From assembly GCA_035623155.1 (NCBI GenBank), contig DASPTZ010000093.1:3367-67366 (forward strand): 64,000 nucleotides of DNA, given 5' to 3'. Numbering within the stretch: the first letter of the stretch is position 1; each line of letters begins with the position of its first letter. The DNA is from Casimicrobiaceae bacterium (GTDB lineage Bacteria; Pseudomonadota; Gammaproteobacteria; Burkholderiales; Casimicrobiaceae). The notes beneath the pieces were generated by a model. It had not been told where the DNA came from, made no database searches, and saw nothing but the letters and a program-made list of their open reading frames with translations. Below are positions 3,082 to 62,468 of the stretch, in pieces. The translations under genes and the position numbers were made by a program.

Positions 3082-3083
3082 AC

Positions 3084-9540: not shown

Positions 9541-9544
<4 letters not shown>
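7955..9544 (-). CDS. ABC transporter substrate-binding protein, family 5 (peptide/opine/nickel type)
   Basis: Start MTRRLAPLLLIAALLFTGPLAAA (signal peptide) at 9544 (ATGA overlap). About 529 aa, DppA/OppA-like length and composition. Confidence 0.8.
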
Positions 9545-10914
<1,370 letters not shown>

Positions 10915-11046
10915 GCTCCCCCTCCCAGTCGTTTGGCCGGCGCGGTGGACAAGCCATCTGCCGCCGCCGGCGATTGTAACCCGGTTGCCGCGACCCGGTT
11001 GGCGCTACTGCCCGCAGCGGGATGGCCACCACACGAGGGTGGCACA

Positions 11047-11934: not shown

Positions 11935-12007
11935 CGCTGGCGCACGCGCTTGTGTAGGATCGCAGCAGCGAGCCTCGCGCTTCGACATAACGTTACAGGC
12001 CAACAGC

Positions 12008-13671: not shown

Positions 13672-13698
13672 GCTGCGTCACCGGCACGTCGCTCGGGG

Positions 13699-49695: not shown

Positions 49696-50445
49696 ATGGG
49701 GAAAGCGACTCGCCAGCTCATCGGCTTTCACGCCGTCACCGCTCGCCTGCGTCAACATCCGCAGAGTGTGCGCACGATCTATGTCGACGCGGGACGGCGT
49801 GATCATCGCGCTAAGGAGCTGATCGAACGAGCGACACAAGCCGGAGTGGCAGTGCATGCCGCGGAATCTTCGAGACTGCAAGCGATCGCGGGCAGCGATC
49901 GCCACCAAGGCGTGGTCGCGACCGTCGATGATGCTCTCCCGCGCCAGGAGCTCGACGACGTATTGAACGCGCTCGCGAAGCCGCCGCTTCTGCTGGTGCT
50001 TGACGGCGTGACCGATCCACACAATCTCGGCGCGTGCCTACGCAGCGCGGACGCATTCGGCGCGCAGGCGGTGATCGTGCCCAAGGACCGCGCCGTGGGC
50101 TTGACCGCCACGGTGGCGAAGGCGGCATCCGGCGCAGCGGACGCGGTGCCGCTCGTTACAGTCACCAACCTCGCGCGCAGCCTTCGCGAAATGAAAGAGC
50201 GTGGGATATGGATCGTCGGCGCCGAAGCAGCCGGCGGCGAGAGTCTGCTCGATGCCGATGTGTCGGGTCCGATCGCGTGGGTGCTGGGCGCCGAAGGCAC
50301 CGGCATGCGACGCCTCACCCGCGATGCCTGCGATCGAATCGTGAGCATTCCGATGCTCGGCGCGGTGTCGTCGCTCAACGTCTCGGTCGCCGCCGGGGTT
50401 TGCTTGTTCGCGACGCAGCGACAAAGGCTGCACGTCGACCACTGA
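49696..50445 (+). CDS. rlmB: 23S rRNA (guanosine-2'-O-)-methyltransferase, SpoU/TrmH family
   Basis: 'LLLVLDGVTDPHNLGACLRSADAFGA', 'AWVLGAEGTGMRRLT' and 'IPMLGAVSSLNVSVAAGVCLF'. Confidence 0.85.
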   Translation: MGKATRQLIGFHAVTARLRQHPQSVRTIYVDAGRRDHRAKELIERATQAGVAVHAAESSRLQAIAGSDRHQGVVATVDDALPRQELDDVLNALAKPPLLLVLDGVTDPHNLGACLRSADAFGAQAVIVPKDRAVGLTATVAKAASGAADAVPLVTVTNLARSLREMKERGIWIVGAEAAGGESLLDADVSGPIAWVLGAEGTGMRRLTRDACDRIVSIPMLGAVSSLNVSVAAGVCLFATQRQRLHVDH

Positions 50446-50486
50446 GCTGCCGACGTCGGCAACGGTGCTTCCTGTGCTCGGGCGCC

Positions 50487-50524
50487 GTTTGATTTTCTAA
50501 ACGATCTGTACTAAAATACTAAAC
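50487..50524 (+). promoter_or_regulatory. Sigma70-type promoter (TTGATT-17 nt-TAAAAT) with embedded conserved operator, upstream of gabT
   Basis: -35 at 50489-50494 and -10 at 50512-50517. The block GTTTGATTTTCTAAACG...ACTA..ATACTAAAC is repeated at 58860-58897. Confidence 0.5.
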
Positions 50525-50600
50525 GGCGGTGGAAGATGGCCGGTCGGTTTACAACGGCCAGTGCCCGCTGGATGAACAAGGAGCGATCGAAGTGGACCGA

Positions 50601-51884
50601 ATGAGCTTGAACACCGAGTGGCAGAGCCGGAAGGAGCACGCGACCGCGCGCGGCGTCGGCGTGCTCACGCAGATCTTCGCGGCGCGCGCCGAGAACGCCG
50701 AAATCTGGGACGTCGAGGGCAGGCGCTACATCGACTTCGCCGGCGGCATCGGCGTGCTCAACACCGGGCATCGCCATCCCAAGGTGATGGCCGCCGCGGC
50801 CGAGCAGCTTCAGCGGTTCACGCACACCTGCTACCAGGTCATGCCCTATCCGGGTTACGTCGCGCTCGCGGAGAAGCTCAACGAGATCACCCCCGGCCGT
50901 TTCCCGAAGAAAACGATCTTCTTCTCGACCGGCGCGGAAGCGATCGAGAACGCAGTCAAGATAGCGCGCGCGGCGACCGGCCGAAGCGGGATCATCGCCT
51001 TCTCCGGGGCGTTTCACGGGCGGACGATGATGGCGATGGCGCTCACCGGCAAGGTGGCGCCGTACAAAGCTGGCTTCGGTCCCTTCCCGCCGGAGATCTA
51101 TCACGCGCCGTTCCCGATCGACCTCCACGGCGTCAGCGTCGAGCAGTCATTGAGCGCGCTGAGCACGCTGTTCAAGGCCGACATCGACCCCAAACGCGTC
51201 GCTGCTGTGGTCATCGAACCGGTTCAGGGCGAAGGTGGATTCTACGTCGTGCCGCATGAATTCATGCGCGCTCTGCGCGCGCTGTGCGACGAGCACGGCA
51301 TGCTGCTCATTGCCGACGAGATCCAGACCGGGTTTGCGCGAACTGGCAAGATGTTCGCGATGGAGCACTACGGCGTCGATCCGGACATCGTCGTCACAGC
51401 CAAGAGCCTGGCCGGCGGCTTTCCGCTGTCGGCCGTCACCGGGCGCGCGGAGATCATGAACGCTCCCCCGGCGGGCGGACTGGGCGGCACCTATGCGGGT
51501 AACCCGGTCGCGATCGCGGCCGCGCTCGCGGTCCTGGACGTTATGCGCGACGAACGCCTGGTCGAGCGTGCCAATCGGCTGGGCGAGGCGATAAGGACGC
51601 TGCTCGGCCGATTGAAGGGCGAGGTTCGGGAGATCGCGGATGTGCGCGGGCTGGGTGCGATGATCGGCGTGGAATTCGCCAGCGCGTCGACCGGCGAGCC
51701 GGACGCCGCGTTCGCGAAGAAAGTGCAGGCGAGGGCGCTGCAAGACGGGTTGCTGCTCCTGACCTGCGGCATACACTTCAACGTCATCCGGTTCCTGATG
51801 CCGCTCACGATTCCGGACGCCGTGTTCGCGGAAGCGCTGCAGGTCCTGGAGCGGTCGATCAGAAGCGCGGCGGCGACGGCCTGA
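50601..51884 (+). CDS. gabT: 4-aminobutyrate--2-oxoglutarate transaminase
   Basis: Start [11 protein letters not shown]. Collinear with GabT: '[38 protein letters not shown]', '[10 protein letters not shown]' and '[20 protein letters not shown]'. Confidence 0.9.
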
Positions 51885-52043
51885 CGGCAGTCGCCTGTGC
51901 CAGCCGAGCGATCCGCTCGCGCCGCGCTCGCCTGACGCCGGGGTTCATCGCGCTCCCCGCGCGCAACTCGCGCGCAAAGCAGTACACTGTATCTCGTTGC
52001 CCGGAAGCCAGGGCGACGCCGTCCGATCCGCCAAGTTGACCCG

Positions 52044-52982
52044 ATGACACCGTTTGCAATCGCGGGCATCCAGATGCCGGTCTCGGCCGAATCCGAGAAC
52101 ATCACCGCGATGGGCAGGCGCCTCAGCCATCTCATGCACCGCTTTCCCTGGGTGCAGATGGTTTTATTCAGCGAGCTGGCCGCGTTCGGCCCCGCGCCCA
52201 AGCACGCACAGCCGCTGCCGGGGCCCGCCGAAATCGCGTTCTGCCAGATGGCGGCGCACCATCACATATGGTTGATCCCGGGCTCGCTCTTCGAGCGTCG
52301 GGAGGACGGCATCTACAACGCGGCGCCGGTGATCGACCCGGGGGGAAACGTCATCGCGCGCTATCGCAAGATGTTCCCTTTCCAGCCCTACGAGATCGGT
52401 ATCCGGCCCGGGACGGAGTTCGTGGTGTTCGACGTGCCGAAAGTGGGGCGCTTCGGGATTTCGATCTGCTACGACATGTGGTTTCCGGAGACCACGCGGC
52501 AGCTCGCCGCGCTCGGTGCGGAAGTAATCCTGCACCCGACGCTCACCGATACGATCGACCGCGACGTCGAGCTGCCGATCGCCCGCGCCAGTGCGGCCAT
52601 CAACCAGTGCTATTTCTTCGACGTCAATGGCCTCGGCGACGGCGGGACCGGGCGATCGATCATCGTCGGGCCATCCGGGTATGTTATTCACGAAGCCGGC
52701 GCGGGGCCGGAATTCATCCCGGTCGAGATCGATCTGGATCGAGTGCGGCGCGAACGCGAACGCGGAGTGCGCGGTCTCGGCCAGACCTTGAAGAGCTTCC
52801 GCGACCGTGCGGTCAATTTTCCGGTCTATGATCGGAGCGAGGTCACGGAGGCTTACCTGCGCGGGCTGGGGCCGCTGGTCAAGCCGGCGCGCCGTGTCGA
52901 CGGGGCACAGCGCCCGGCGGAAGACGTCGGCGCGACACCCGGCGCGCACAGCAACGTCGGGTCGAAGGGGGACGCAGCATGA
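52044..52982 (+). CDS. Carbon-nitrogen hydrolase (nitrilase superfamily amidase)
   Basis: E-K-C triad contexts 'VLFSELAAFG', 'ARYRKMFPF' and 'GISICYDMWFPE'. Confidence 0.8.
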   Translation: MTPFAIAGIQMPVSAESENITAMGRRLSHLMHRFPWVQMVLFSELAAFGPAPKHAQPLPGPAEIAFCQMAAHHHIWLIPGSLFERREDGIYNAAPVIDPGGNVIARYRKMFPFQPYEIGIRPGTEFVVFDVPKVGRFGISICYDMWFPETTRQLAALGAEVILHPTLTDTIDRDVELPIARASAAINQCYFFDVNGLGDGGTGRSIIVGPSGYVIHEAGAGPEFIPVEIDLDRVRRERERGVRGLGQTLKSFRDRAVNFPVYDRSEVTEAYLRGLGPLVKPARRVDGAQRPAEDVGATPGAHSNVGSKGDAA

Positions 52983-55777
52983 AGCACAAACCGAAAGCCA
53001 CGCTGGAGCAGCGAGAGATCGCTATCAACCTCTACCGCAGCGTCTGGGAGGTTCGCAACGACGGCTGGATCCATCTGTCCGACAACGCGACCCGGCTGGT
53101 CGACGCCGAGACGCACGGGGGCGACATGGAACCGGCTCGCTCGCTGGTGGCCGAGACGCTGGATCTCCTCGAGCCGATCGAAAGCTACTGGGCATTCCCC
53201 GGACGAAGCGGGTTTCAGCGTCTGGCGGGACTGTTCCAGGACCGCGAGTACGAAGGATTCAACGATCTCGTCCACCGGATCAGCCGAGCGCTATCGAGCC
53301 AGTCGTATCGCCGCAGCTTCGTCTCGCTGCACTTGGACGAGAAGGCCGCTGTCGAGGAAGAGGAGCGGCGCGAGACCGAGGTGCGCACCGACCGGCCCTA
53401 TTTCGAGGTGTTAGTCGTGGACGAAATCTCGCCTCAGGAGGAGGAAGAGCTCCGCGAGCGCCTGCGCACCATGCGCCGCGAAGAGGACAAGTTCATCTAC
53501 GAACTGGTCGTGGTGCCCAGCTTCGAGGACGCGCTGATCGCGGTGCTGTTCAACTTCAACATCCAGGCGGTGGTGATCCGCTACGGCTTTCCTTTGAAAT
53601 CACGCTACAAGCTCGACATCCTGCGCAAGCTGGTCGAAGGCTACGAAGGGGAGGGGCTCGATGTCCTCGCCGAGAGCGAGCGCGGCTGCCTGCTCGGCAC
53701 CAAGATCGCTCAGCTGCGGCCCGAGCTCGATCTGTTCATGGTGACCGATGTGTCCGCCGAGGATATCGCCGGCAAGCTTTGCGAGAGCTTCCACCGCGTC
53801 TTCTATCGCGACGAGGACGACCACGAAAAGCATTTCTCGATCCTGCGCGCGATCGAGGACCGCTATCAGACGCCGTTCTTCACGGCGCTGCGCGAGTACA
53901 GCCAGCAGCCAACCGGGGTGTTCCACGCGCTGCCGATCTCGCGCGGCAAGTCGATCCTGCAGTCGCACTGGATCCAGGACATGATCCAGTTCTACGGCCT
54001 CGGGGTGTTCCTGGCCGAGACCTCGGCGACCTCCGGCGGACTCGATTCGCTGCTCGAGCCCACCGGTCCGATCAAGCTCGCGCAGGAGCTGGCGGCGCGC
54101 GCGTTCGGCGCCAAGCGCACCTTCTGGGTCACCAATGGCACCTCCACCGCCAACAAGATCGTCGTGCAGGCGCTGATCCAGCCGGGCGACATCGTGCTGC
54201 TCGACCGCAACTGCCACAAATCGCACCACTACGGCATGGTTCTCTCGGGCGCGCACGTGGTGTACCTCGACGCCTATCCGCTGAACGAGTACTCCATGTA
54301 CGGCGCGGTGCCGATCCGCTCGATCAAGCAGCGGCTTCTCGAGCTCAAGCGCGCGGGCCGGCTCGAACGCGTGAAGCTGGTCCTCCTCACCAACTGCACT
54401 TTCGATGGCATCGTCTACGACGTCGAGCGGGTGATGGAGGAGTGCCTCGCGATCAAGGCGGACTTGATCTTCCTCTGGGATGAAGCGTGGTTCGCCTTCG
54501 CGGGCTTCCATCCTACCTACCGGCGCAGGACCGGAATGGGCGCGGCGCATCGGCTGCGCGAGCGGTTCCGCGATCCCGAATACCGCGAGCGCTACGAAGC
54601 GTTCGCGAGGGACTATGGCAACGCCGACGACCAGCGCCTGCTCGACACTCGCCTGGTACCCGATCCCGACCGGGCGCGTATCCGCGTCTACGTGACTCAC
54701 TCGACGCACAAGACGCTCACCGCGCTGCGCCAGGGGTCGATGATCCATGTCTACGACCAGGATTTCAAGCAGAAGGTCGAGGAGGCGTTTCACGAGGCGT
54801 ACATGACCCACACCTCGACCTCGCCCAACTATCAGATTCTCGCCTCGCTCGACGTCGGCCGCCGCCAGGTCGAACTCGAGGGCTACGAGCTCGTGCAGAA
54901 GCAAGTCGACCACGCGATGGCGCTGCGCGAGCGCATTGCCACTCACTCGCTGCTCAAGAAATATTTCCGCTTCCTTACCACGGGCGACCTGATCCCGAAG
55001 CAGTACCGGCCATCGGGGATCGAGGCGTATTTCGATTCCGAGCAGCGCTGGGCGCGCATGGAGGAGTGCTGGCACACGGACGAGTTCGTCGTCGACCCAA
55101 CGCGGCTCACGCTCGCGATCGGTCCGACGGGCATCGACGGCGACACCTTCAAGCACAACTACCTGATGGAGAAGTACGGCATCCAGATCAACAAGACTTC
55201 GCGCAACACCGTCCTGTTCATGACCAACATCGGCACGACGCGGAGCTCGGTGGCGTACCTGATCGAGATCCTGGTGAAAATCGCGCAGGAGCTCGACGAG
55301 CGCAACGAGGACATGAGCCCTCCGGAGATGCGCCTGCATCAGCTCAAGGTCGAATCGCTGACCAAGCGGCTTCCGGCGCTTCCGGATTTCAGCCACTTCC
55401 ACCGCTACTTCCGCTGCAGCCTGGACTCGACTACGCCCGAGGGCGACATGCGCAAGGCTTATTTCATGGCCTACGACGAGGCGTTGTGCCGCTACATCAC
55501 GCTCAAGGATCTGCAGCAACGAGTCGCAGCCGGCGAAGAGGTGGTCTCCGCGATGTTCGTCATACCCTATCCACCCGGCTTCCCGATCCTGGTCCCGGGA
55601 CAGGTGATCAGCAAGGACATCCTCGGCTTCATCGAAGCGCTCGACACGCGCGAGATCCACGGCTATCGCCCCGAGCTGGGCTTTCGCGCATTCACGGAAG
55701 CCGCGATCGCGGTGGCTGCGCCCGCCGTCACCGGCGGTGCTGCGGTCACCCGCATCGCAGCAGCCAGGGCGGAGTAG
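52979..55777 (+). CDS. Orn/Lys/Arg decarboxylase family (fold-type I PLP) protein, unusually long (932 aa)
   Basis: ATGA overlap. Wing-like domain 'YFEVLVVDE...AVVIRYGF'. 'FWVTNGTSTANKIV' and 'VTHSTHKTLTALRQGSMIHV' (PLP Lys). Carries about 140 aa of extra N-terminus. Confidence 0.85.
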   Translation: MKHKPKATLEQREIAINLYRSVWEVRNDGWIHLSDNATRLVDAETHGGDMEPARSLVAETLDLLEPIESYWAFPGRSGFQRLAGLFQDREYEGFNDLVHRISRALSSQSYRRSFVSLHLDEKAAVEEEERRETEVRTDRPYFEVLVVDEISPQEEEELRERLRTMRREEDKFIYELVVVPSFEDALIAVLFNFNIQAVVIRYGFPLKSRYKLDILRKLVEGYEGEGLDVLAESERGCLLGTKIAQLRPELDLFMVTDVSAEDIAGKLCESFHRVFYRDEDDHEKHFSILRAIEDRYQTPFFTALREYSQQPTGVFHALPISRGKSILQSHWIQDMIQFYGLGVFLAETSATSGGLDSLLEPTGPIKLAQELAARAFGAKRTFWVTNGTSTANKIVVQALIQPGDIVLLDRNCHKSHHYGMVLSGAHVVYLDAYPLNEYSMYGAVPIRSIKQRLLELKRAGRLERVKLVLLTNCTFDGIVYDVERVMEECLAIKADLIFLWDEAWFAFAGFHPTYRRRTGMGAAHRLRERFRDPEYRERYEAFARDYGNADDQRLLDTRLVPDPDRARIRVYVTHSTHKTLTALRQGSMIHVYDQDFKQKVEEAFHEAYMTHTSTSPNYQILASLDVGRRQVELEGYELVQKQVDHAMALRERIATHSLLKKYFRFLTTGDLIPKQYRPSGIEAYFDSEQRWARMEECWHTDEFVVDPTRLTLAIGPTGIDGDTFKHNYLMEKYGIQINKTSRNTVLFMTNIGTTRSSVAYLIEILVKIAQELDERNEDMSPPEMRLHQLKVESLTKRLPALPDFSHFHRYFRCSLDSTTPEGDMRKAYFMAYDEALCRYITLKDLQQRVAAGEEVVSAMFVIPYPPGFPILVPGQVISKDILGFIEALDTREIHGYRPELGFRAFTEAAIAVAAPAVTGGAAVTRIAAARAE

Positions 55778-55806
55778 GTGGCGACCGGACGCCCGGGAGA
55801 GGAAAC

Positions 55807-57261
55807 ATGAAAAAGCTCACCACCATTTCCGACGTGCGGCTGTTCTTTCATCGCAACGAGCGGCCGATCTATTTCATCAGCGCGACCAACTTCAACCTCG
55901 CCGGAATCGACGAGCGGGTACAGCATTTCAAGTACATCAACCACATCGACTGCTTCGATGGACGGCACCCGAACGTGTTCGTGCCGAAGGAGGCGCCGCA
56001 CGCGGAGTTCGAGAGCATCGAGGACATCACCAACTATCTGCTCGAGCACAAAGAGGTCGTCGACTACATCAAGGGCCGCGGCGGCAAGCCGGTGGCGGTG
56101 TTCCTGATGTTCGACGAAAAGACCGAGGAGCTGTGTCGCGAGCTTGGGTTGGAGGTGTGGTTCCCATCGGCCGCGCTGCGCAGCCGCTGCGACAATAAGA
56201 TGGAAACGGTGCGCATCGGCAACAAGGCGGGCGTGCCGAGCGTTCCCAATGCGCTCTCGCGCGTAGAAAGCTACGAGCATCTGCTCAAGGTCAGCCGCGG
56301 CGGGGGCATCGGCAGCGATCTCGTCATCCAGACCGCGTTCGGCGACTCGGGCCACACCACGTTCTTCATCGCCAATGAGGCCGATTGGAAGAAGCACGCA
56401 GACGAGATCGTCGGCGAGTCGGAAGTGAAGATCATGAAGCGCATCAACTGCCGCGGCTCGACGCTGGAAGCATGCGTCACCCGCTGCGGCACGATCGTGG
56501 GACCTCTCCTGACCGAGATCGTGGGACAGAAGGAGCTCACCCCCTACAAAGGAGGCTGGTGCGGCAACGAAGTCTTTCCCGGGGCATTCACCGAGGGCGT
56601 GCGCGCCAAGGCGCGCGACATGGCGTTCAAGTTCGGCAACCAGCTCTGGAAGGAGGGCTACCGAGGCTACTTCGACCTCGATTTCTTGATCGACCAGGAC
56701 ACCGGCGACGTCTATCTCGGCGAGCTTAATCCGAGGGTGTGCGGCGCGAGCCCGATGACCAACCACGCCGCTTTCGCCTATGCAGACGTCCCGCTGTTCC
56801 TGTTCCACCTCTTGGAATTCTCGGGCCAGGACTTCGACCTCAACGTCGAAGCGCTCAATGCGCGCTGGGCCGACCCGGATTTCATCGACAGCTGGAGCCA
56901 GATCGTCATCAAGCACACCCAGGACAACGTCGACATCGTTACCCAGGCGCCGCCGAGCGGCATCTGGAAGCAGGCATCCGACGGGTCGGTGTCGTACCAC
57001 CGCTTCGATTACCACCGCGCTGCCGTGGAGACCGAGCGCGAGGCGTATTTCCTGCGCATCACCGGGGCCGGGGATTACCGCTACGAGGGTGCCGATCTCG
57101 GGATCCTGATCACCCGCGGGCGCTCCATGACCGACGAGTTCAAGCTCAACGCCCGGGCCGAGAACTGGATCAGGGGGCTCAAGTCGTACTACTACGGCAA
57201 GCCGCTGGGCGCCGTGCAGGAGCCTGTGGCGCCCGCGCCGGGAGCGTTCAAGATCCTCTAG
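55807..57261 (+). CDS. ATP-grasp family ligase (biotin-carboxylase-like fold)
   Basis: ATG 55807 after gggagagg. 'LVIQTAFGDSGHTTFFI' and 'GYFDLDFLIDQDTGDVYLGELNPRVCG' (E-x-N Mg/ATP motif). Confidence 0.75.
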   Translation: MKKLTTISDVRLFFHRNERPIYFISATNFNLAGIDERVQHFKYINHIDCFDGRHPNVFVPKEAPHAEFESIEDITNYLLEHKEVVDYIKGRGGKPVAVFLMFDEKTEELCRELGLEVWFPSAALRSRCDNKMETVRIGNKAGVPSVPNALSRVESYEHLLKVSRGGGIGSDLVIQTAFGDSGHTTFFIANEADWKKHADEIVGESEVKIMKRINCRGSTLEACVTRCGTIVGPLLTEIVGQKELTPYKGGWCGNEVFPGAFTEGVRAKARDMAFKFGNQLWKEGYRGYFDLDFLIDQDTGDVYLGELNPRVCGASPMTNHAAFAYADVPLFLFHLLEFSGQDFDLNVEALNARWADPDFIDSWSQIVIKHTQDNVDIVTQAPPSGIWKQASDGSVSYHRFDYHRAAVETEREAYFLRITGAGDYRYEGADLGILITRGRSMTDEFKLNARAENWIRGLKSYYYGKPLGAVQEPVAPAPGAFKIL

Positions 57262-57281
57262 GATTGCGCGGCCGAAGTCGC

Positions 57282-58253
57282 ATGGACTTCACTTTTCAGG
57301 CGGTCGCCGAGGAACAGCCGGGACCGAAGTGGCGCGCTCTGTTCGAGCGCTTCTGGCCTGCGTATGAGCGCTGGTTCTTGAGCGAGGGCGAGAAGGCGCG
57401 CCCCCGCTACCTCACATCGCTGCGCCAGCTCAAGGCGCATATGCCCGAGCTGGTTCCGACCTACGAGCGCCTCGTGGAGCTCGCCGGCAACAGCGATCTT
57501 GTCGCGCGCTTCCTGGCCTCGTTCTGTCCGCCGAGCTATCTCATCGCCTGCTCGCAGGCCGTGTGGGCCGATGGTGAGCCGTTCCTGGTGCGCAACTACG
57601 ATTACAGCCCGCAGCTGTGCGAAGGCGTCATCCTCGCCACGGCATGGAACGGCCGCCGCGTGATCGCGATGAGCGACGGGATGTGGGGCGTGCTCGACGG
57701 CATCAACGAGGATGGACTCGCGGTTTCGTTGAGCTTCGGCGGACGCCGCATCGAGGGTGTGGGCTTCGGGGTCCCGCTGATCCTGCGCTACATCCTGGAA
57801 TTCGCGGCCCGCACCGAGGAAGCGGTCGCCGTGCTCGAGCGCGTGCCGGTTCACATGTCGTACAACGTGACGGTGCTCGACGCCGCTGGCGAATTTGTCA
57901 CGGCCTATCTTCGTCCCGACTTTCCGGCGGTCGTGCACGCCGTGCCATACGCGGCCAATCATCAGGAGGAGATCGAGTGGGAGCAGCACGCGACGGCCAC
58001 CGCGACGTTGCAGCGCGAGCAGTTTCTTTACCGGCAGCTACGCGGCAGCGCACGCCACCCGGAAACGCTGGTTGCCTCGTTCCTTGAGCCGCCGCTGTAC
58101 GCCAACGCTTTCGCCAAAGGCTATGGCACGGTCTACACGGCGGTCTATCGGCCAACCGCCTCGCCGAGGGTCGAGTATCTGTGGCCGGGTTCGACCTGGG
58201 GCTTCGACTTCGACGCGTTCGAGGAAGGCTCGAGGACCGTGCAACTCGCCTAG
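57282..58253 (+). CDS. Ntn-hydrolase, peptidase C45/acyl-CoA:6-APA acyltransferase-like
   Basis: 'SYLIACSQAVW' (candidate nucleophile Cys), 'FLVRNYDY', 'GINEDGLAVSLSF' and 'YNVTVLD'. Confidence 0.65.
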   Translation: MDFTFQAVAEEQPGPKWRALFERFWPAYERWFLSEGEKARPRYLTSLRQLKAHMPELVPTYERLVELAGNSDLVARFLASFCPPSYLIACSQAVWADGEPFLVRNYDYSPQLCEGVILATAWNGRRVIAMSDGMWGVLDGINEDGLAVSLSFGGRRIEGVGFGVPLILRYILEFAARTEEAVAVLERVPVHMSYNVTVLDAAGEFVTAYLRPDFPAVVHAVPYAANHQEEIEWEQHATATATLQREQFLYRQLRGSARHPETLVASFLEPPLYANAFAKGYGTVYTAVYRPTASPRVEYLWPGSTWGFDFDAFEEGSRTVQLA

Positions 58254-58260
58254 TCTCGGT

Positions 58261-58827
58261 TCAGAACGTCGGCGGCGAGTTGGCGCTGACGATCTCGCAG
58301 GGCGTGCCCCCGACGTTGCGGAAGCGGTGCGGCAGCCGGCTTTCAAAGTAGTAGGCATCGCCCGGACCGAGAACCTTGACCTGGCTCGCCACCGTGATTT
58401 CGATCCGGCCCTTGGTGACCACCCCGCCTTCCTCCCCGGCGTGGCTCAGCATCTGCGGGCCGGTGTCGGCGCCGGGAGGGTAGACCTCGTGCAGAACCGA
58501 CATGGCACGATGACGGATGCCGGCGCCGACGAGAAAGATCGCCACGTCGCCGCTGCCCAGATCGGGGAGCTGCTTGCGTTCGAAAAAGAAATCGGTCGTC
58601 CCGCCGTCGTCGCTCGTAAAGAAATCAGCCAGCGACATCGACAGCACGTCCAGGATCTTCTTGAGCGATGCAATCGAGGGGCTGATCGAGTTCTGCTCGA
58701 TCTGCGATATGAGGCCGTTGGTGACCCCGGCTTTCTTGGCCAGTGCGCGCTGGGACAGGCCCTGGCGCAGCCGGCACTCCTTGAGCCGCTTGCCGATGTC
58801 GATATGCAGAGTAGGATGCGATTTCAT
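58261..58827 (-). CDS. XRE-family HTH + cupin transcriptional regulator (PuuR-like)
   Basis: 'IGKRLKECRLRQGLSQRALAKKAGVTNGLISQIEQN' HTH. C-terminal cupin 'GEEGGVVTKGRIEITV...GDAYYFESRLPHRFRN'. Confidence 0.85.
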   Translation of the reverse strand: MKSHPTLHIDIGKRLKECRLRQGLSQRALAKKAGVTNGLISQIEQNSISPSIASLKKILDVLSMSLADFFTSDDGGTTDFFFERKQLPDLGSGDVAIFLVGAGIRHRAMSVLHEVYPPGADTGPQMLSHAGEEGGVVTKGRIEITVASQVKVLGPGDAYYFESRLPHRFRNVGGTPCEIVSANSPPTF

Positions 58828-58859
58828 GGGCTCGCCTCCGTTGCACGGGGTGGCTCTCT

Positions 58860-58897
58860 GTTTGATTTTCTAAACGTGCAGGACTAGTATACTAAAC
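58860..58897 (+). promoter_or_regulatory. Sigma70-type promoter (TTGATT-17 nt-TAGTAT) with the same conserved operator block as 50487-50524
   Basis: -35 at 58862-58867 and -10 at 58885-58890. Lies in the divergent region between the regulator (start 58827) and the transporter (start 59032). Confidence 0.5.
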
Positions 58898-59031
58898 ACA
58901 GCCGGGAAGGGGGCAGCTCCCGAGGAGGCCTATTCTCGTCGGGCGCAGGAAACCCGGCCTGCCGGCGCCAGAGACGCGTGCGACCACAGCGCGCGGCCAT
59001 CACCAAATGATCGCGAGGAGGAGCTAACACC

Positions 59032-60315
59032 ATGAAGAAGATTAAGCTGACGACGTGGATCTTTTTGGCCATGATCGCGGGCATCGTCGTGGGCTGGATG
59101 GACCACGAGCTCCTGCCGACGCCGGAGTCGGCCAAGACGGTCGCGGGCTACATCTCGCTCTTCACTGACGTCTTCCTGCGATTGATCAAAATGATCATCG
59201 CGCCGCTGGTGTTCTCGACCCTTGTCGTAGGTGTTGCGCACATGGGCGATACGGCGGCGATCGGTCGCATCGGCCTCAAGACCATGGGCTGGTTCATCAC
59301 CGCGTCGTTCCTCTCGCTGGTACTGGGACTGATACTGGTCAACGTCCTCCAGCCCGGTGCATCGCTAAATCTCCCGTTGCCGGATGTCAACGCCTCGTCG
59401 AGCATCAAGACCTCGGGGATGTCGCTCAAGGAATTCGTGACACACCTTGTGCCGAGGAGCGCCTTCGAGGCGATGGCCAACAACGAGATCCTGCAGATCG
59501 TCGTCTTCTCGTTGTTCTTCGGCGTCGCCGCCGCGGCGTTCGGCGAAAAGACGAAGACCATAGTCAACTGGATCGAGGAGTTGTCCCACATCATGCTCAG
59601 GGTGACGAGTTATGTGATGGCGGTCGCGCCGGTCGCGGTGTTCGCGGCGATGGCGGCGACCGTCACGACCCAGGGACTGGGCATTCTCTGGACGTACGGC
59701 AAGTTCATGGGACAGTTCTATCTGGGCATCCTGATCCTCTGGTGCTTGCTCGCCCTGGCTGGCTTCCTGTTCCTAGGGCCGCGAATCGGCCGGCTCATCA
59801 GCCTCATCAGGGAGCCCATCTTGCTCGCATTCAGCACCGCGAGTAGCGAAGCCGCGTACCCGAAGACGCTGGAGCAGCTCGAGCGGTTCGGCGCGAGCAA
59901 GAAAATCACCAGCTTCGTGCTGCCGCTCGGCTATTCGTTCAATCTCGATGGGTCGATGATGTATTGCACGTTCGCCACCCTGTTCATCGCGCAGGCGTAC
60001 AAAATCCCGCTCGACCTCGGTCAACAGTTCACGATGCTGCTGATCCTGATGGTGACGAGCAAGGGCATGGCGGGCGTGCCGCGGGCTTCGCTGGTGATCA
60101 TCGCCGCCACGCTGGCGCAGTTCAACATCCCGGAAGCAGGGTTGCTGCTGATCCTGGGCATCGACCAGTTCCTCGACATGGGACGCTCTGCGACCAACGT
60201 AGTCGGCAACAGCATCGCCACCGCCGTGGTCGCGAAGTGGGAGGGCGAGCTGATACCAGAGCGCAAGGCGCAGGCGGAGATCGACCGCGACGAAGGACTG
60301 CCGGCCCCGGCCTGA
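59032..60315 (+). CDS. Dicarboxylate/amino acid:cation symporter (DctA/GltP family)
   Basis: 'FLRLIKMIIAPLVFSTLVVGVAHMGD', 'PLGYSFNLDGSMMY' and 'GIDQFLDMGRSATNVVGNSIATAVVAKWEGEL'. Confidence 0.85.
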   Translation: MKKIKLTTWIFLAMIAGIVVGWMDHELLPTPESAKTVAGYISLFTDVFLRLIKMIIAPLVFSTLVVGVAHMGDTAAIGRIGLKTMGWFITASFLSLVLGLILVNVLQPGASLNLPLPDVNASSSIKTSGMSLKEFVTHLVPRSAFEAMANNEILQIVVFSLFFGVAAAAFGEKTKTIVNWIEELSHIMLRVTSYVMAVAPVAVFAAMAATVTTQGLGILWTYGKFMGQFYLGILILWCLLALAGFLFLGPRIGRLISLIREPILLAFSTASSEAAYPKTLEQLERFGASKKITSFVLPLGYSFNLDGSMMYCTFATLFIAQAYKIPLDLGQQFTMLLILMVTSKGMAGVPRASLVIIAATLAQFNIPEAGLLLILGIDQFLDMGRSATNVVGNSIATAVVAKWEGELIPERKAQAEIDRDEGLPAPA

Positions 60316-60335
60316 AGGTGCGGAGGAGGATTCAA

Positions 60336-61262
60336 ATGAGCGCGAACACGTTGAAAACGTTGCTGGCCGCTGTGGCGGCGTGTCTGTTCGCAGGCACGTT
60401 TGCCACAGCAGCGCTTGCGCAGGACGCTGAAGGCATCACTCAGCTCACAGGAACGTTGAAGAAGATCAAGGCGAACAAGACGATCGTGATCGGCTACCGC
60501 GATGCCTCGGTCCCGTTCTCGTACCTCAACCCCGCCGGACAGCCGATCGGCTATTCGATCGACATTTGCAAGGAGATTGTCGAGGACATCCGTGCCGAGC
60601 TGGGCGACGATACGATCCAGGTGAAGTACGCGCCGGTCGACACCCAGACCCGGATTCCAAGCGTGGTCGATGGGACGGTCGATCTCGAGTGCGGGACGAC
60701 GACAAACAACACCGAGCGGCAGAAGCAGGTCGCTTTTTCGCCGATCATCTTCGTGAGCGGCACCAAGCTTGCGGTCAAGCGATCGTCGAAGTTCAGGTCG
60801 TACCGCGACCTCAAGGGCCGTACGGTAGCGGTCACACCCGCGAGCACCAACGAAGCGGCGATCAAGGCGCTGAATAACAAGCAGGGATTGAACATCGCGA
60901 TCAAGGTGGTCCCCGGCAACGCGCAGGCCTTCGAGGCCGTCGCCGCCGGTCAAGCCGATGCCTGGGCGGGCGATGACGCGGTGCTCTTCGCGGCGATCGC
61001 GGAGTCGAAGAACCCGCGCGAGTTCATGGTGCTCGATGAGTTCGTTTCCTACGATCCCTATGGGCTGATGTTCCGCAAGAACGACCCGGACTTCGGCGCT
61101 TTGGTGAAGCGCACGTTTGAACGGCTCGCCGAGGCGCGGGAGCTGGCGCGAATCTACGAGCAGTGGTTCCAGCGCAGGCTGCCTTCCGGCAGGACCCTGG
61201 GCATCGAAATGAGCCCGCAACTCGAGTCGATTTTCGAGTCGCTGGGCCAGCCGACCGAGTAA
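60336..61262 (+). CDS. Amino acid ABC transporter substrate-binding protein (Glu/Asp GltI-like)
   Basis: ATG 60336. Signal peptide. 'IVIGYRDASVPFSY', 'GYSIDICKEIV' and 'DLECGTTTNNTERQKQVAFS'. Confidence 0.8.
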   Translation: MSANTLKTLLAAVAACLFAGTFATAALAQDAEGITQLTGTLKKIKANKTIVIGYRDASVPFSYLNPAGQPIGYSIDICKEIVEDIRAELGDDTIQVKYAPVDTQTRIPSVVDGTVDLECGTTTNNTERQKQVAFSPIIFVSGTKLAVKRSSKFRSYRDLKGRTVAVTPASTNEAAIKALNNKQGLNIAIKVVPGNAQAFEAVAAGQADAWAGDDAVLFAAIAESKNPREFMVLDEFVSYDPYGLMFRKNDPDFGALVKRTFERLAEARELARIYEQWFQRRLPSGRTLGIEMSPQLESIFESLGQPTE

Positions 61263-61324
61263 GCAAGCTCCTTCGAAATGCGCCCTGCGCGACGCATCCC
61301 CGAACTCGATAGCAGGAGGACACC

Positions 61325-62416
61325 ATGAACGGATACTCTAGCCAAGCGCGCTTTGCTGCAGTGGCATCGGCGTGGCTCTTGTGCTTCGCGTGTTTCACGG
61401 CTCTGGCCGCCGAACCCGGCAAGCTGCCCAACGTGGTGATCCTCGCTACGGGCGGCACCATCGCCGGGACCGGCGCCTCCAGCACCGCGACCGTCGGCTA
61501 CCAGGCCGCGACGGTGGGCATACAGCGGTTGATCGAAGCAGTGCCGGAGCTGAAAAAGGTCGCCAACGTGGCCGGCGAGCAGGTGTTTCAGATCGCCAGC
61601 GAGAACATGAACAACGACTACTGGCTCAAGCTCGCCAAGCGGGTCAACGAATTGCTCGCACAGAGCGACGTCGACGGCATCGTCATCACCCATGGCACCG
61701 ATACGATCGAGGAGACGGCGTATTTCCTGAACCTCGTCGTAAAGAGCCGGAAGCCGGTGGTAATCGTCGGCGCCATGCGCCCATCAACCGCGATCTCCGC
61801 CGACGGTCCGATCAACCTCTACAACGCGGTGATTCTGGCCGGCAGCCCGGAAGCCGTGGGCAAGGGCGTGTTGGTAGTGCTCAACGATCAGATCAATGGT
61901 GCGCGCGAAGTGACCAAGACGAACACCGCGAACACCGACACCTTCCGCAGCTGGGAGCTCGGTTTCATGGGCTACATGCAGGACAACGCTCCGCACTTCT
62001 ATCGCGTGTCGACACGCAAGCACACGGCGGACACGGAGTTCGACGTGTCGAAGCTCGACGCGCTGCCGCAGGTGGACATCGTCTACGGGTACGCCAACAT
62101 GAACCGCATCGCCGTGGACGCCTTTGTGGCCGCCGGGGCGAAAGCGATCGTCCACGCCGGTGTTGGCGACGGCAGCCTGGCGCGGCCGGCGGTAGAGCCT
62201 GCGCTGATCGAGGCGCGCAAAAAGGGCGTGATCATCGTGCGCGCGAGCCGTGTGGGTAACGGCATTGTAGCCCGCAACGGCGAGGCCAAGGACGACGAGA
62301 TGGATTACGTCGTGTCGGACACGCTGAACGCGCAGAAGGCGCGCATCCTAGTGATGTTGGCGCTGACCAAGACGAACGATACCAAGGAAATCCAGCGCAT
62401 GTTCTACACCTACTAA
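61325..62416 (+). CDS. ansB: Periplasmic type II L-asparaginase/glutaminase-asparaginase
   Basis: Signal peptide. 'VVILATGGTIAG', 'GIVITHGTDTIEETAYFLNL' and 'VIVGAMRPSTAISADGPINLYNAV'. Confidence 0.9.
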   Translation: MNGYSSQARFAAVASAWLLCFACFTALAAEPGKLPNVVILATGGTIAGTGASSTATVGYQAATVGIQRLIEAVPELKKVANVAGEQVFQIASENMNNDYWLKLAKRVNELLAQSDVDGIVITHGTDTIEETAYFLNLVVKSRKPVVIVGAMRPSTAISADGPINLYNAVILAGSPEAVGKGVLVVLNDQINGAREVTKTNTANTDTFRSWELGFMGYMQDNAPHFYRVSTRKHTADTEFDVSKLDALPQVDIVYGYANMNRIAVDAFVAAGAKAIVHAGVGDGSLARPAVEPALIEARKKGVIIVRASRVGNGIVARNGEAKDDEMDYVVSDTLNAQKARILVMLALTKTNDTKEIQRMFYTY

Positions 62417-62468
62417 GGAAAAACGTCCGCACCTCGATCCCGAACCGCGCGCCGCAGGAGAATCCGCC

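Follow-up and report, generated by a model that had tools for sequence, protein, structure and literature searches.

In a 64,000-nucleotide stretch of Casimicrobiaceae DNA (hereafter the window), four co-directional genes downstream of gabT encode a C-N hydrolase of the nitrilase superfamily (CN-hydrolase), a long PLP-dependent decarboxylase, an ATP-grasp ligase, and a C45-family amidase. The question raised by this locus is which substrate these enzymes share, and what an ATP-dependent ligase and two amidases contribute next to a decarboxylase and a GABA transaminase. In the first-pass annotation it was suggested that lysine, ornithine, or arginine is decarboxylated, that the resulting diamine or agmatine is conjugated by the ATP-grasp enzyme, and that the amidases and the transaminase serve its turnover, as an analogue of the Puu pathway.

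Organization of the locus

The layout described previously, with four genes on one strand 3' of gabT and beside a PuuR-like regulator, was confirmed by the ORF coordinates and by direct reading of the sequence (Table 1). The gabT reading frame is open from a GTG at 50529, and the Met codon at 50601 agrees with homologues; 159 nt separate the end of this gene from the CN-hydrolase start. The decarboxylase start and the CN-hydrolase stop share a 4-nt ATGA overlap, with GGGGGA upstream of the decarboxylase. A 29-nt gap, with the ribosome-binding site GGAGAGG, precedes the ATP-grasp gene, a gap of 20 nt follows it, and the C45 gene ends 7 nt from the convergent regulator. Longer reading frames for the ATP-grasp (54487-57261) and C45 (56739-58253) proteins, as given by the ORF lister, were rejected as high-GC artefacts; homologues back the shorter starts, which had also been chosen in the first-pass annotation.

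The regulator scored 153 bits with the PuuR model NF007408, under the cut-off of 211. Further downstream in the window, a DctA/GltP-type symporter, a Glu/Asp-binding protein, and a type II asparaginase/glutaminase are encoded. A PotA-like ATPase is also found downstream of the cluster. No GabD gene was detected near the cluster, the sole match in the window being a 32%-identical aldehyde dehydrogenase at 4658-6025.

Table 1. Features of the locus, with positions in the window
Feature	Coordinates	Strand	Evidence
gabT, 4-aminobutyrate:2-oxoglutarate transaminase	50601..51884	+	TIGR00700 628 bits (cut-off 507), Aminotran_3 441 bits
CN-hydrolase, nitrilase-superfamily C-N hydrolase (amidase), 312 aa	52044..52982	+	CN_hydrolase 104 bits
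Long-form fold-I PLP decarboxylase, predicted L-glutamate decarboxylase, 932 aa	52979..55777	+	Rv2531c match
ATP-grasp ligase, biotin-carboxylase-like fold, 484 aa	55807..57261	+	NF005096 783 bits (cut-off 684)
C-terminal arm of ATP-grasp protein, tip G-A-F-K482-I-L-stop	57205..57258	+	Tip conservation
C45-family Ntn (Cys) amidase/acyltransferase, predicted autoproteolytic, 323 aa	57282..58253	+	AAT (PF03417) 97 bits (cut-off 23), NF040521 167 bits (cut-off 85)
HTH_3 + cupin regulator, PuuR-like, convergent	58261..58827	-	HTH_3 52 bits, Cupin_2 67 bits

The decarboxylase resembles a glutamate decarboxylase of M. tuberculosis

The window decarboxylase matched the M. tuberculosis protein Rv2531c (PDB 9n0n/9n0o) with E = 2.4e-257. 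One alignment runs from residue 25 to 918 in the window protein and from 25 to 909 in 9n0n, and the identity to Rv2531c is 46.6% over 888 residues. The OKR_DC_1 and OKR_DC_1_C profiles were found with 265 and 25 bits, respectively, and OKR_DC_1_N was not detected in this protein by profile search. The roughly 130-140 extra N-terminal residues that had been remarked upon earlier are real: they align with the four-helix N-terminal domain (residues 1-131) of the Rv2531c cryoEM structures (PDB 9N0N/9N0O/9N0P; PMC12329521). Both proteins share the same four domains, namely the four-helix NTD, a receiver-like domain, the PLP catalytic domain, and a CTD.

Rv2531c, which acts alone in M. tuberculosis, was reported in PNAS in 2026 to convert L-glutamate to GABA; it was inactive on Lys, Orn, and Arg, both in vitro and by metabolomics, and showed a K0.5 for free glutamate of 509 mM, a Mg2+ requirement, and hysteresis (PMC13506015). 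Such a K0.5 agrees with the idea that enzymes of this type use free glutamate poorly. When the Rv2531c active-site residues H405, K406, K570, R576, T606, R718, and N731 were compared, the window enzyme carried identical residues at H413, K414, R584, T614, and N738 and the PLP lysine at K578, and had K725 in place of R718. Among 108 cluster-type homologues, S381, H405, K406, S567, K570, R576, T606, S607, and N731 (Rv2531c numbering) are invariant. We predict the window enzyme to be a long-form L-glutamate decarboxylase of the Rv2531c type, a subfamily within IPR000310 (OKR_DC_1). This assignment and the GABA context described below are drawn from homology and gene context, the activity being known from Rv2531c alone.

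The window enzyme belongs to a clade separate from that of Rv2531c (43-50% identity), and the active site is the same in both. Both enzymes are tied to GABA catabolism, in the window with GabT physically adjacent. What sets the clades apart is their neighbourhood: the window's clade had the partner genes in 25 of 26 decarboxylase-seeded loci, compared to none of eight in the Rv2531c-like actinobacterial clade. The window's clade, for which glutamate decarboxylation is predicted, is thus almost always encoded with ATP-grasp, C45, and amidase genes; the stand-alone clade is apparently that of the Actinomycetota.

Conservation and gene neighbourhood

In 44 of 52 informative loci, which came from Alpha-, Beta-, and Gammaproteobacteria, Bacteroidota, Planctomycetota, and Verrucomicrobiota, the four genes lie side by side. 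This is far beyond chance, and it upholds the earlier view of a functional unit that matches no characterized pathway and whose decarboxylase, ATP-grasp, and C45 genes stay together elsewhere. Same-strand adjacency with tight spacing or overlaps was held over at least six phyla despite reordering (CNH-GRASP-C45-DC in Accumulibacter), and in 68 of 72 loci the C45 gene is the next one after the ATP-grasp gene. We found no publications describing the trio of ATP-grasp, C45, and CN-hydrolase genes.

The most frequent context is that of the GABA shunt. A GabT-type gene adjoins the cluster in 31 of the 52 ATP-grasp-seeded loci, including those from Bacteroidota, Planctomycetota, and Verrucomicrobiota, so the omega-transaminase that had been named as a partner is indeed a frequent one. 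GabD (TIGR01780, 731 bits, cut-off 646) is a neighbour in 21 of the 52 related loci, and many relatives also have genes for Glu/Asp uptake alongside. The closest loci (L014, L041, L120, L134) have the same HTH+cupin regulator next to the cluster; more distant ones have a MocR/GabR-type regulator in its place. In two loci, L037 and L162, the ATP-grasp-C45(-CNH) set is located inside an operon for the conversion of arginine via 4-guanidinobutyrate to GABA, which makes GABA the metabolite common to both settings. Furthermore, a Dpp/Opp-type peptide ABC transporter follows the cluster on a Roseobacter ponti plasmid. Locus L031 contains a PuuC-like aldehyde dehydrogenase.

Some loci deviate in their enzymes. 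The long decarboxylase is absent from the trio-type loci L020, L031, L037, and L162. In L042 it is replaced by a fold-III PLP decarboxylase (LysA-like) beside the ATP-grasp gene, and in L104 an amidase-signature enzyme substitutes for the CN-hydrolase. Such exchange of a partner for an unrelated enzyme of like activity counts for functional coupling.

These data bear on a reading with no joint pathway, in which a normal GABA shunt of decarboxylase and GabT happens to lie next to ATP-grasp, C45, and CN-hydrolase genes that have nothing to do with it. Occurrence of the trio without the long decarboxylase (L020, L031, L037) and the solitary Rv2531c of M. tuberculosis would fit this; however, the tight same-strand adjacency over at least six phyla (44/52 and 25/26) and the phylogenetic distinctness of the trio-bearing decarboxylase clade from the trio-less one make it the least probable explanation of all those considered.

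The polyamine route proposed in the first-pass annotation fares hardly better, and we regard it as very improbable. Rv2531c acts on glutamate and not on Lys, Orn, or Arg, its active-site residues are kept here, and the partners are GabT, GabD, and GabR-type proteins and transporters of the Glu/Asp type rather than putrescine enzymes. Homologues of PuuA, PuuB, and PuuD, as well as agmatine deiminase, were absent in profile searches of the window and in the related neighbourhoods. In its favour are the KOR-decarboxylase fold, the PuuR-like regulator, the PotA-like ATPase downstream, the PuuC-like dehydrogenase in L031, the LysA-like decarboxylase in L042, and AguB as the best NCBIfam match of the CN-hydrolase, albeit far under the cut-off. 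Because of the activity of Rv2531c, the conserved active site, and the GABA-type neighbours, the module appears to be centred on glutamate and GABA and not on diamines or polyamines. The other part of the earlier proposal, in which the substrate or the product of the decarboxylation is linked to an amine by an amide bond at the expense of ATP, with amidases for its release, still offers the most plausible logic; conjugation of a diamine or polyamine does not.

The ATP-grasp protein is a biotin carboxylase in fold and carries a lysine-tipped arm

The ATP-grasp protein belongs to a family with thousands of members that is labelled 'biotin carboxylase' in every RefSeq genome, both by NCBIfam (NF005096) and by PGAP. 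True biotin-carboxylase models reached at most 25 bits, and the only Pfam match was a weak one to CPSase_L_D2 (E = 0.0025). An AF2 model (pLDDT 82.7, pTM 0.85) gave biotin carboxylases, PurD, and PurK as top Foldseek matches, with TM values of 0.5-0.6 at 12-15% identity; biotin carboxylases align over approximately 490 columns and share the three-domain fold with the E-x-N Mg/ATP motif. K208, E306, N308, and R310 are invariant in the homologues, which are 60-96% identical across phyla. The most unusual feature of the module, an invariant C-terminal lysine arm on this protein, had been overlooked in the first-pass annotation.

The arm's tip, [FY]-K-[ILMF]-[LMIV]-stop, is shared by 78 of the 79 homologues from the loci and by each of the 120 database matches; in the window, the lysine codon is located at 57250-57252. 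In more distant subfamilies, a lysine within the last four residues is retained in the best six 50%-cluster representatives. The lysine is constant, what follows it differs or is missing, and the linker, which consists of 23% Ala, 14% Pro, and approximately 1% Lys+Arg, varies in length. In the AF2 monomer model, the arm is disordered and undocked from the active site. As a flexible, Ala/Pro-rich structure with a lysine, it recalls BCCP.

The closest fold raises the possibility of bicarbonate chemistry, in which carboxyphosphate is formed, an amine or amide is N-carboxylated, with the lysine arm possibly acting as a biotin-free CO2 carrier, and an amidase hydrolyses the activated product. This would follow the logic of urea carboxylase and allophanate hydrolase, where an ATP-grasp enzyme is paired with an amidase as at this locus. 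The best three-domain structural matches (biotin carboxylases and PurK), the sole Pfam match and the NCBIfam name, the amidase-signature enzyme of the allophanate hydrolase family in L104, and the presence of a decarboxylase in every context are consistent with it. Several points nevertheless render it quite improbable. Unlike biotin carboxylase, the protein has neither a biotinyl domain nor an AMKM motif, and BCCP or carboxyltransferase genes were found neither in the window nor in any of approximately 130 related loci. At the position of the catalytic base, the family motif is ELNPR-V/I-C/T-G-A-S, which differs from the E-M-N-T-R-I-Q-V-E-H of the E. coli enzyme, where E296 is the base. Moreover, lysine carbamates are labile, and both partner enzymes are Cys-nucleophile amidases, for which we know of no CO2 transfer. 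The family has almost certainly been misnamed 'biotin carboxylase'.

The two amidases

The catalytic residues E44, K109, C142, and E149 of the CN-hydrolase are kept in 54 homologues, and the conserved Glu-Lys-Cys triad places the protein in the nitrilase superfamily. No NCBIfam equivalog cut-off was reached that would assign a specific enzyme: AguB gave 73 bits (cut-off 410), deaminated glutathione amidase (Nit1-type) 59 (355), and formamidase 60 (406). Among solved structures, PH0642, Nit2, and Nit3 are the closest. The C45 protein contains the motif PP-x-Y-x-x-(G/A)|C-(S/T)-Q followed by R-N-Y-D, with predicted cleavage at A89|C90. Its predicted autoprocessing Cys, the absence of which would have told against the earlier proposal, is kept in 69 of 69 aligned homologues. 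The roles that we propose below for the two amidases are guesses from family resemblance at 25-30% identity.

Amides of GABA and beta-alanine, including those with lysine, are made by carnosine synthase, itself an ATP-grasp enzyme, and Tan of the fly is a C45 enzyme that hydrolyses beta-alanyl-amines. Both would suit a cycle of soluble conjugates, in which free glutamate is decarboxylated to GABA, the ATP-grasp enzyme joins GABA or glutamate to an amine or amino acid in solution to yield a GABA-amide or gamma-glutamyl compound like homocarnosine or gamma-Glu-GABA, and the amidases hydrolyse the conjugate; the lysine tail would then merely be a pseudo-substrate, lid, or docking peptide. The identical decarboxylase active sites in the stand-alone and trio-linked clades, the location of the trio downstream of other GABA-producing routes, and the peptide transporter of R. 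ponti argue for such a cycle. It leaves unexplained, however, why an invariant lysine sits on a Lys/Arg-free Ala/Pro arm whose flanks and linker length vary; a ligase and a hydrolase acting on one bond would be futile unless separately regulated, and no acceptor-supplying gene is conserved in the cluster neighbourhood. We consider this explanation, the most probable of the rivals, somewhat unlikely.

Proposed function of the operon

The reading that we prefer, at a probability somewhat below even, is that the operon is a widespread, uncharacterized glutamate-to-GABA unit which feeds the GABA shunt and uses the ligase arm for tethering. Specifically, the ATP-grasp enzyme, with the fold of a biotin carboxylase and another function, would spend ATP on linking a C4/C5 acid, through an amide bond, to the epsilon-amine of the lysine on its own C-terminal swinging arm. 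The acid loaded would be glutamate, via its gamma-carboxyl, or GABA, via its carboxyl group. In the former case, the decarboxylase would strip the alpha-carboxyl from the tethered gamma-glutamyl group and leave a 4-aminobutyryl arm. The C45 Cys-Ntn amidase, a relative of isopenicillin-N acyltransferase, might then free the arm by release of GABA or by acyl transfer, and the CN-hydrolase (Nit1/Nit2-like) might clear another amide or mono-amide adducts of dicarboxylates (2-oxoglutaryl, succinyl). With tethering, a decarboxylase that binds free glutamate very poorly could run at normal glutamate levels, and the flux would come under ATP control. The invariant lysine on a disordered, Ala/Pro-rich linker, the coupling of the four genes, and the high K0.5 of Rv2531c for free glutamate speak for the model. 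The more specific claim, that the ATP-grasp enzyme is its own carrier and that decarboxylase, C45 protein, and CN-hydrolase act on arm-bound glutamate or GABA, seems somewhat unlikely as it stands.

Several observations weigh against this tethering model, among them the arm left outside the active site in the AF2 monomer. The trio clade retains R576 and the other residues for which contact with the gamma-carboxylate of free glutamate has been proposed, as would be expected if free glutamate is also a substrate. One ATP would be spent per glutamate on a reaction that needs none, a cost whose rationale is unproven. Loci L162, L031, and L020 lack the long decarboxylase and would have no obvious decarboxylase for a tethered-glutamate step, which favours GABA over glutamate as the ligase substrate and would deprive tethering of an obvious purpose.

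Comparison with known tethering and amide systems

Side-chain-tethered decarboxylation of Glu or Asp is known for BtrJ/BtrI/BtrK in butirosin biosynthesis, CtaD/E/F, and FlvN/L/O (PMC11350588). In the butirosin system, an ATP-using ligase links the side-chain carboxyl of glutamate to a carrier, and BtrK, a PLP decarboxylase of the 'basic amino acid' family, removes the alpha-carboxyl of gamma-glutamyl-BtrI to give a tethered 4-aminobutyryl group; both steps are proposed here likewise. Dedicated enzymes of this AHBA pathway release or transfer the tethered group, for which we propose the amidases. BtrK is a fold-III PLP decarboxylase, and the decarboxylase beside the ATP-grasp gene in L042 has the same fold. 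The window enzyme, in contrast, belongs to fold I, and the putative tethering would serve primary catabolism (GabT/GabD) instead of antibiotic biosynthesis. Whereas butirosin formation relies on an acyl carrier protein and a phosphopantetheine thioester, ligase and PLP decarboxylase are co-inherited at the present loci with no ACP, and the candidate carrier would be the lysine of the ligase tail with an amide link.

Attachment of metabolites to protein tails is also familiar from ATP-grasp enzymes of the LysW/LysX and RimK/tubulin-tyrosine-ligase type, which couple a metabolite, by an amide bond, to a conserved residue of a flexible protein C-terminus. In the LysW system, later enzymes process the tethered metabolite and a hydrolase frees it. 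There, a carboxylate of the protein tail (Glu or the C-terminus) is joined to the amine of the metabolite, whereas the amine of a conserved lysine would be used here; LysW is a separate carrier, and the tail of the present enzyme is part of the ligase.

The Puu pathway of E. coli (PuuA, PuuB, PuuC, PuuD, PuuE, PuuR) would be paralleled in its ATP-dependent amide formation, processing of the conjugate, and GABA-releasing amidase, and is paralleled in its GABA transaminase and PuuR-type HTH-cupin regulator. However, its substrate is putrescine, it contains no decarboxylase, and its ligase is glutamine-synthetase-like and its amidase of the C26 family, as opposed to ATP-grasp and C45 here.

Significance

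It was only in 2026 that long-form 'KOR' decarboxylases were recognized as glutamate decarboxylases, on the basis of a single enzyme, the solitary one of M. tuberculosis. In all lineages sampled outside the clade of Rv2531c, an ATP-dependent ligase and two amidases are inherited together with the decarboxylase, and the ATP-grasp enzyme carries a lysine-tipped, Ala/Pro-rich, Lys/Arg-free arm that is described here for the first time. Since the cluster is present in model organisms, including Acinetobacter baylyi, Cupriavidus necator, Variovorax, and Bradyrhizobium, its function is directly testable. If the trio supplies a tethered or conjugated substrate, this would account for the poor handling of free glutamate by the decarboxylase, give the GABA shunt a control point gated by ATP, and represent a new type of covalent substrate carrier, the ligase's own lysine arm, of which there are few in primary metabolism. 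If the ligase does serve as its own carrier, the operon would be a protein-tethered entrance to the GABA shunt in primary metabolism, and most members of this decarboxylase family would not have free glutamate as their native substrate.

Gene organization at the locus

The four co-directional genes that the first-pass annotation had described downstream of gabT were found again from ORF coordinates and by direct reading, and the families named there (CN_hydrolase, OKR_DC_1, AAT/C45, and GabT, with TIGR00700 at 628 bits for the last) were all matched in profile searches. The genes encode a CN-hydrolase, a long PLP-dependent decarboxylase, an ATP-grasp protein, and a C45-family protein (together, the tetrad). 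The features of the locus are summarized in the table. The window sequence originates from a peat metagenome, and its matches were limited to peat and soil metagenome DNA runs. Its nearest relatives, L014 and L041, are loci of uncultured soil betaproteobacteria, with 88–89% identity in the ATP-grasp protein.

The end of gabT lies 159 nt upstream of the CN-hydrolase start, and no canonical terminator was found in this interval. A GC-rich 10-bp hairpin spans the gabT stop codon, with no T-run behind it. Upstream of gabT, an imperfect 17-nt inverted repeat (CGCCGTTTGATTTTCTA ... TAAAATACTAAACGGCG) overlaps the sole sigma-70-like promoter match there and may be the operator of the PuuR-like regulator. 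No Rfam elements were found in 50300–59200. The sensor kinase, the LuxR-type regulator, and RlmB, which lie farther upstream, appear unrelated to the tetrad. Two antisense ORFs on the minus strand (686 aa, 53600–55660; 450 aa, 55663–57015) were dismissed as non-coding, GC-rich artefacts because their homologue clusters mirror the sense genes. Apparent fusions of the CN-hydrolase to the decarboxylase (ORFs of 1134–1427 aa; related loci L018, L033, L074, L075, and L077) were rejected as upstream in-frame read-through in high-GC DNA.

Features of the tetrad and its surroundings in the window
Feature	Position	Strand	Remarks
Hybrid sensor kinase, NahK/ErcS family	45834-47663		NF041832, 369 bits
ErdR-like LuxR-type response regulator	47692-48408	-	convergent with the sensor kinase
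RlmB	49696-50445
Inverted repeat upstream of gabT	50483-50528
Sigma-70-like promoter match	50489-50517
Hairpin over gabT stop codon	51872-51895
CN-hydrolase	52044-52982	+	312 aa; CN_hydrolase 104 bits
PLP decarboxylase	52979-55777	+	932 aa; ATG overlaps preceding TGA as ATGA; OKR_DC_1 265 bits, OKR_DC_1_C 25 bits
ATP-grasp protein	55807-57261	+	484 aa; 29-nt gap before; strong GGAGAGG ribosome-binding site
C45-family protein	57282-58253	+	323 aa; 20-nt gap before; AAT 97 bits, C45_proenzyme 167 bits
HTH+cupin regulator	58261-58827	-	convergent; 7 nt past C45 stop
DctA/GltP-type symporter	59032-60315		downstream of regulator
Glu/Asp ABC substrate-binding protein	60336-61262		downstream of regulator
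Type II (periplasmic-type) asparaginase/glutaminase	61325-62416		TIGR00520, 461 bits
PotA-like ABC ATPase	62469-63572		downstream of regulator

Conservation of the gene set

Counts seeded with the ATP-grasp protein covered the 52 loci in which each flank extends for at least 4.5 kb. The C45 gene was present in 49/52, the CN-hydrolase in 47/52, and the long decarboxylase in 50/52; all four genes occurred together in 44/52, so that the decarboxylase–ATP-grasp–C45 triad is conserved elsewhere. The C45 gene immediately followed the ATP-grasp gene on the 3' side in 68/72 loci. Carriers of the tetrad belong to the Alpha-, Beta-, and Gammaproteobacteria (among them Acinetobacter baylyi, Cupriavidus, Variovorax, Bradyrhizobium, and Ruegeria), Bacteroidota, Planctomycetota, and Verrucomicrobiota; loci bearing the ATP-grasp gene are also present in Actinomycetota. 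In Accumulibacter the order is GabT, CN-hydrolase, ATP-grasp, C45, decarboxylase, and as the gene order varies, it is the linkage itself that is preserved rather than mere synteny. The incomplete loci might be taken as a sign that the genes share no joint pathway, a reading that we consider hardly credible beside these counts.

Two kinds of replacement were observed. In L042, a LysA-like fold-III PLP decarboxylase adjoins the ATP-grasp, C45, and CN-hydrolase genes (the trio), and in L104, L105, and L132 an amidase-signature enzyme takes the place of the CN-hydrolase. These swaps for unrelated enzymes underline that activities are retained, rather than particular genes. In the last three loci (L104, 9700–16416), GabT and GabD diverge from the long decarboxylase, which is followed by C45, a VOC/glyoxalase-like protein, the amidase-signature enzyme, the ATP-grasp protein (50% identical, C-terminus ...FGSKLF), and a 531-aa protein that is MttB-like by eye.

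The trio also occurs without a decarboxylase in Acinetobacter sp. MB5 (L020, 4976–10447; order CN-hydrolase, ATP-grasp, C45), beside a Rep3-family replication initiator. This contig looks like a plasmid, which suggests that the trio is able to travel by plasmid as a self-contained unit. Copies at 57–64% identity were found in S. meliloti and on many R. leguminosarum plasmids. One from the symbiosis-type plasmid p3 of Rhizobium leguminosarum, near fixAB (L161, 6150–11727), was set aside as a decayed and uninformative copy: its PLP enzyme is shorter, the ATP-grasp gene is frameshifted just before a ...KIV tail, and C45 is truncated by IS30.

The decarboxylase and its clade

The decarboxylase matched PDB entries 9N0N, 9N0O, and 9N0P over residues 25–918 (E = 2.4e-257; 46.6% identity). 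All three are Rv2531c, the long-form PLP decarboxylase of M. tuberculosis and the only characterised relative. CryoEM of Rv2531c revealed four domains, one of them a unique four-helix N-terminal domain (residues 1–131), and the approximately 140 extra N-terminal residues noticed in the first-pass annotation are a domain of this type (PMC12329521). Rv2531c is inactive on Lys, Orn, and Arg; in pure form it turns L-glutamate into GABA, requires Mg2+, and shows a lag, a Hill number of 4, and a K0.5 of 509 mM (2026 PNAS, PMC13506015). Its deletion lowered cellular GABA by 84%, and 13C-glutamate labelling of GABA was wholly lost (PMC13506015).

Of the residues implicated in the Rv2531c papers, H413, K414, K578 (the PLP lysine), R584, T614, and N738 are kept in the window enzyme, and R718 of Rv2531c corresponds to K725. 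The conserved active site supports a putative glutamate-to-GABA type, and GABA is a better reading of the product of an Rv2531c-type enzyme than the diamine or agmatine assumed at first.

In a decarboxylase-seeded metagenome scan with an Rv2531c fragment as reference, partners were found in 0/8 loci with enough flank among the 22 nearest Rv2531c (51–89% identity); the sole characterised enzyme therefore falls in a stand-alone clade. The window's clade (43–50% identity to Rv2531c) had the ATP-grasp protein in 25/26, C45 in 25/26, and the CN-hydrolase in 22/26 informative loci. It is a distinct, partner-dependent lineage, and the window enzyme adds a member to a family that was described only recently. 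Gene neighbourhoods are discussed in neither Rv2531c paper (PMC13506015, PMC12329521). An alignment comparison revealed 13 positions that separate the stand-alone from the trio-linked clade, none of them a reported active-site residue. Four sit just after the active-site residue N731 (I735R, I741M, T743N, and W748R in Rv2531c numbering; Rv2531c 735–748 is window 742–755), giving the trio-linked clade two additional arginines.

Glutamate and GABA in the gene neighbourhood

A search of GTDB species genomes with the ATP-grasp protein gave 80 loci, and the ORFs surrounding them were clustered. Recurrent neighbours were GabT (TIGR00700-positive even in Bacteroidota and Planctomycetota), the succinate-semialdehyde dehydrogenase GabD (TIGR01780, 731 bits), a divergent regulator of MocR/GabR or PuuR type, and Glu/Asp transporters (GltP/DctA, GltI), with TRAP-TAXI transporters in Rhodobacterales. 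The window genes at 59032–63572 would serve the uptake of acidic amino acids and amides, consistent with glutamate being what the module takes in.

Neither L037 (a Rhizobiaceae MAG) nor L162 (plasmid NZ_CP084753.1, region 1–14000; recorded as Roseateles sp., an assignment marked as unverified) has the long decarboxylase. There the ATP-grasp–C45 pair lies amid enzymes leading from arginine via 2-ketoarginine and 4-guanidinobutyrate to GABA, including the 5-guanidino-2-oxopentanoate decarboxylase AruI (NF005712, 736 bits), an aldehyde dehydrogenase, an agmatinase-family ureohydrolase, a D-amino-acid dehydrogenase, and a racemase that carries a fused arginase-like domain. A permease, a USP, and RidA belong to the operon too, and the nearby CN-hydrolase is divergent together with an Lrp regulator. 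All these gene neighbourhoods have GABA as their shared metabolite.

The first-pass annotation had proposed that a basic amino acid is decarboxylated and the amine conjugated by ligation, for polyamine handling. The Orn/Lys/Arg-type scaffold of the decarboxylase speaks for such a route and the substrate range of Rv2531c against it, and the tetrad lies outside the Puu pathway; we regard the polyamine model as very unlikely. The module is probably centred on glutamate and GABA, not on polyamines.

The ATP-grasp protein and its C-terminal arm

Pfam barely detected the ATP-grasp protein (CPSase_L_D2, E = 0.0025), and NCBIfam NF005096, named 'biotin carboxylase', matched at 783 bits. The family is large (at least 5,876 members; 453 clusters of 50% identity at E ≤ 1e-30) and uncommonly well conserved, with 60–96% identity across phyla. 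A PDB sequence search returned marginal biotin-carboxylase matches only (E ~2e-3). The AF2 model has a confident fold (pLDDT 82.7, pTM 0.85) and is closest to biotin carboxylases over all three domains, then to PurD and PurK (TM 0.5–0.6; 12–15% identity). True biotin-carboxylase models nevertheless scored ≤25 bits, and the protein was rejected as a member of that family. The segment after its ELNPR motif is unlike the catalytic segment of biotin carboxylases, and no BCCP or carboxyltransferase gene was found near the ATP-grasp gene in any locus examined. Bicarbonate-dependent N-carboxylation, following the logic of urea amidolyase, would suit the fold and is improbable beside these results.

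A C-terminal lysine arm was missed in the first-pass account of this protein. After the last ordered strand follows a linker of 10–35 residues, variable in length and sequence, with 23% Ala, 14% Pro, and ~1% Lys+Arg (11% in the protein body). The tip x-F-K-[ILMF]-[LMIV]-stop was present in 120/120 database matches and in 78/79 locus homologues, where the remaining one is truncated at the edge of its contig; the window protein ends in GAFKIL-TAG. Distant subfamilies keep the lysine amid changed residues (FKFG, YKVF, SKLF, SFK-stop, IAK-stop), and farther ones have IKS or IKQ 6–8 residues from the end. Because the lysine persists through these changes, it is the conserved element, and not the C-terminal carboxylate or a hydrophobic plug. 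Lipoyl and biotinyl swinging arms share this design, being Ala/Pro-rich and otherwise uncharged with a single reactive lysine. In the AF2 model the arm is disordered and undocked, and self-acylation is neither supported nor excluded by it.

The two amidases

The Ntn-hydrolase signature PP-x-Y-x-x-(G/A)↓C-(S/T)-Q, followed by R-N-Y-D, was found in 69/69 C45 homologues. The autoprocessing Cys, on which the first-pass assignment of this protein hinged, is thus invariant, and self-cleavage is predicted between A89 and C90. A PDB sequence search with the C45 protein gave no useful match, and no co-variation of the last tail residues of the arm with the C45 processing-site residues was visible. C45 enzymes of characterised function act on omega-linked amino-acyl amides by cleavage or transfer: a delta-(alpha-aminoadipoyl) group is taken off by isopenicillin-N acyltransferase, and beta-alanyl amines are hydrolysed by Tan of Drosophila.

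The CN-hydrolase keeps the catalytic residues E44, K109, C142, and E149, and among solved structures it is closest to PH0642, Nit2, and Nit3. It scored far under the cut-offs of the NCBIfam models for AguB, nitrilase, formamidase, and deaminated-glutathione amidase, and by its sequence is classed as an amidase at large. Both enzymes are Cys-nucleophile amidases that act via acyl-thioester intermediates.

Proposed mechanism

The comparisons support co-inheritance of the four genes and a putative ligase with a conserved lysine arm. As a composite explanation we tentatively favour, at somewhat less than even confidence, a glutamate-to-GABA module with an arm-tethered substrate and release by amidases. 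The ATP-grasp ligase would join the arm lysine (K482 in the window) by an ATP-driven amide bond either to glutamate, at its gamma-carboxyl, or to GABA, at its carboxyl. The decarboxylase would work on the arm-bound gamma-glutamyl group, the 4-aminobutyryl group would be released or transferred by C45, and the CN-hydrolase would clear dicarboxylate mono-amide adducts or another amide. Such chemistry has a direct precedent in the biosynthesis of butirosin, closthioamide, and fluvirucin, where Glu or Asp is tied to a carrier by its side chain and PLP-dependent alpha-decarboxylation yields GABA or beta-alanine (PMC11350588). Tethering would explain the 'basic amino acid' scaffold of the decarboxylase, because a side chain tethered in this way would be long and carry no charge, and also the poor handling of free glutamate by Rv2531c.

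Several points stand against the arm model. The trio-linked clade retains the residues proposed to contact the free gamma-carboxylate, the arm is left undocked by AF2, and the ATP spent has no proven return. Furthermore, the trio is found without the long decarboxylase, which would be simpler if the substrate of the ligase were GABA. The specific tethering mechanism is possible but doubtful. The rival is a soluble cycle of GABA or Glu amides, in which the tail would act as a pseudo-substrate or as a peptide for docking; we consider it rather unlikely, if a possibility to be reckoned with.

The ligate-modify-release logic of the tetrad is similar to that of the Btr and Puu systems, but unlike Btr-like systems it operates without an ACP. 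Full-text literature searches returned no publications on the trio or the lysine arm, and RefSeq gives the genes no labels other than 'biotin carboxylase', 'C45 family peptidase', 'carbon-nitrogen hydrolase family protein', and 'aminotransferase class I/II-fold PLP-dependent enzyme'. The arm may represent a categorically new means of substrate carriage, which we hold to be a real, if minor, prospect. The tetrad works like an entry to the GABA shunt, and its genomic contexts support a module linked to GABA catabolism and glutamate supply.
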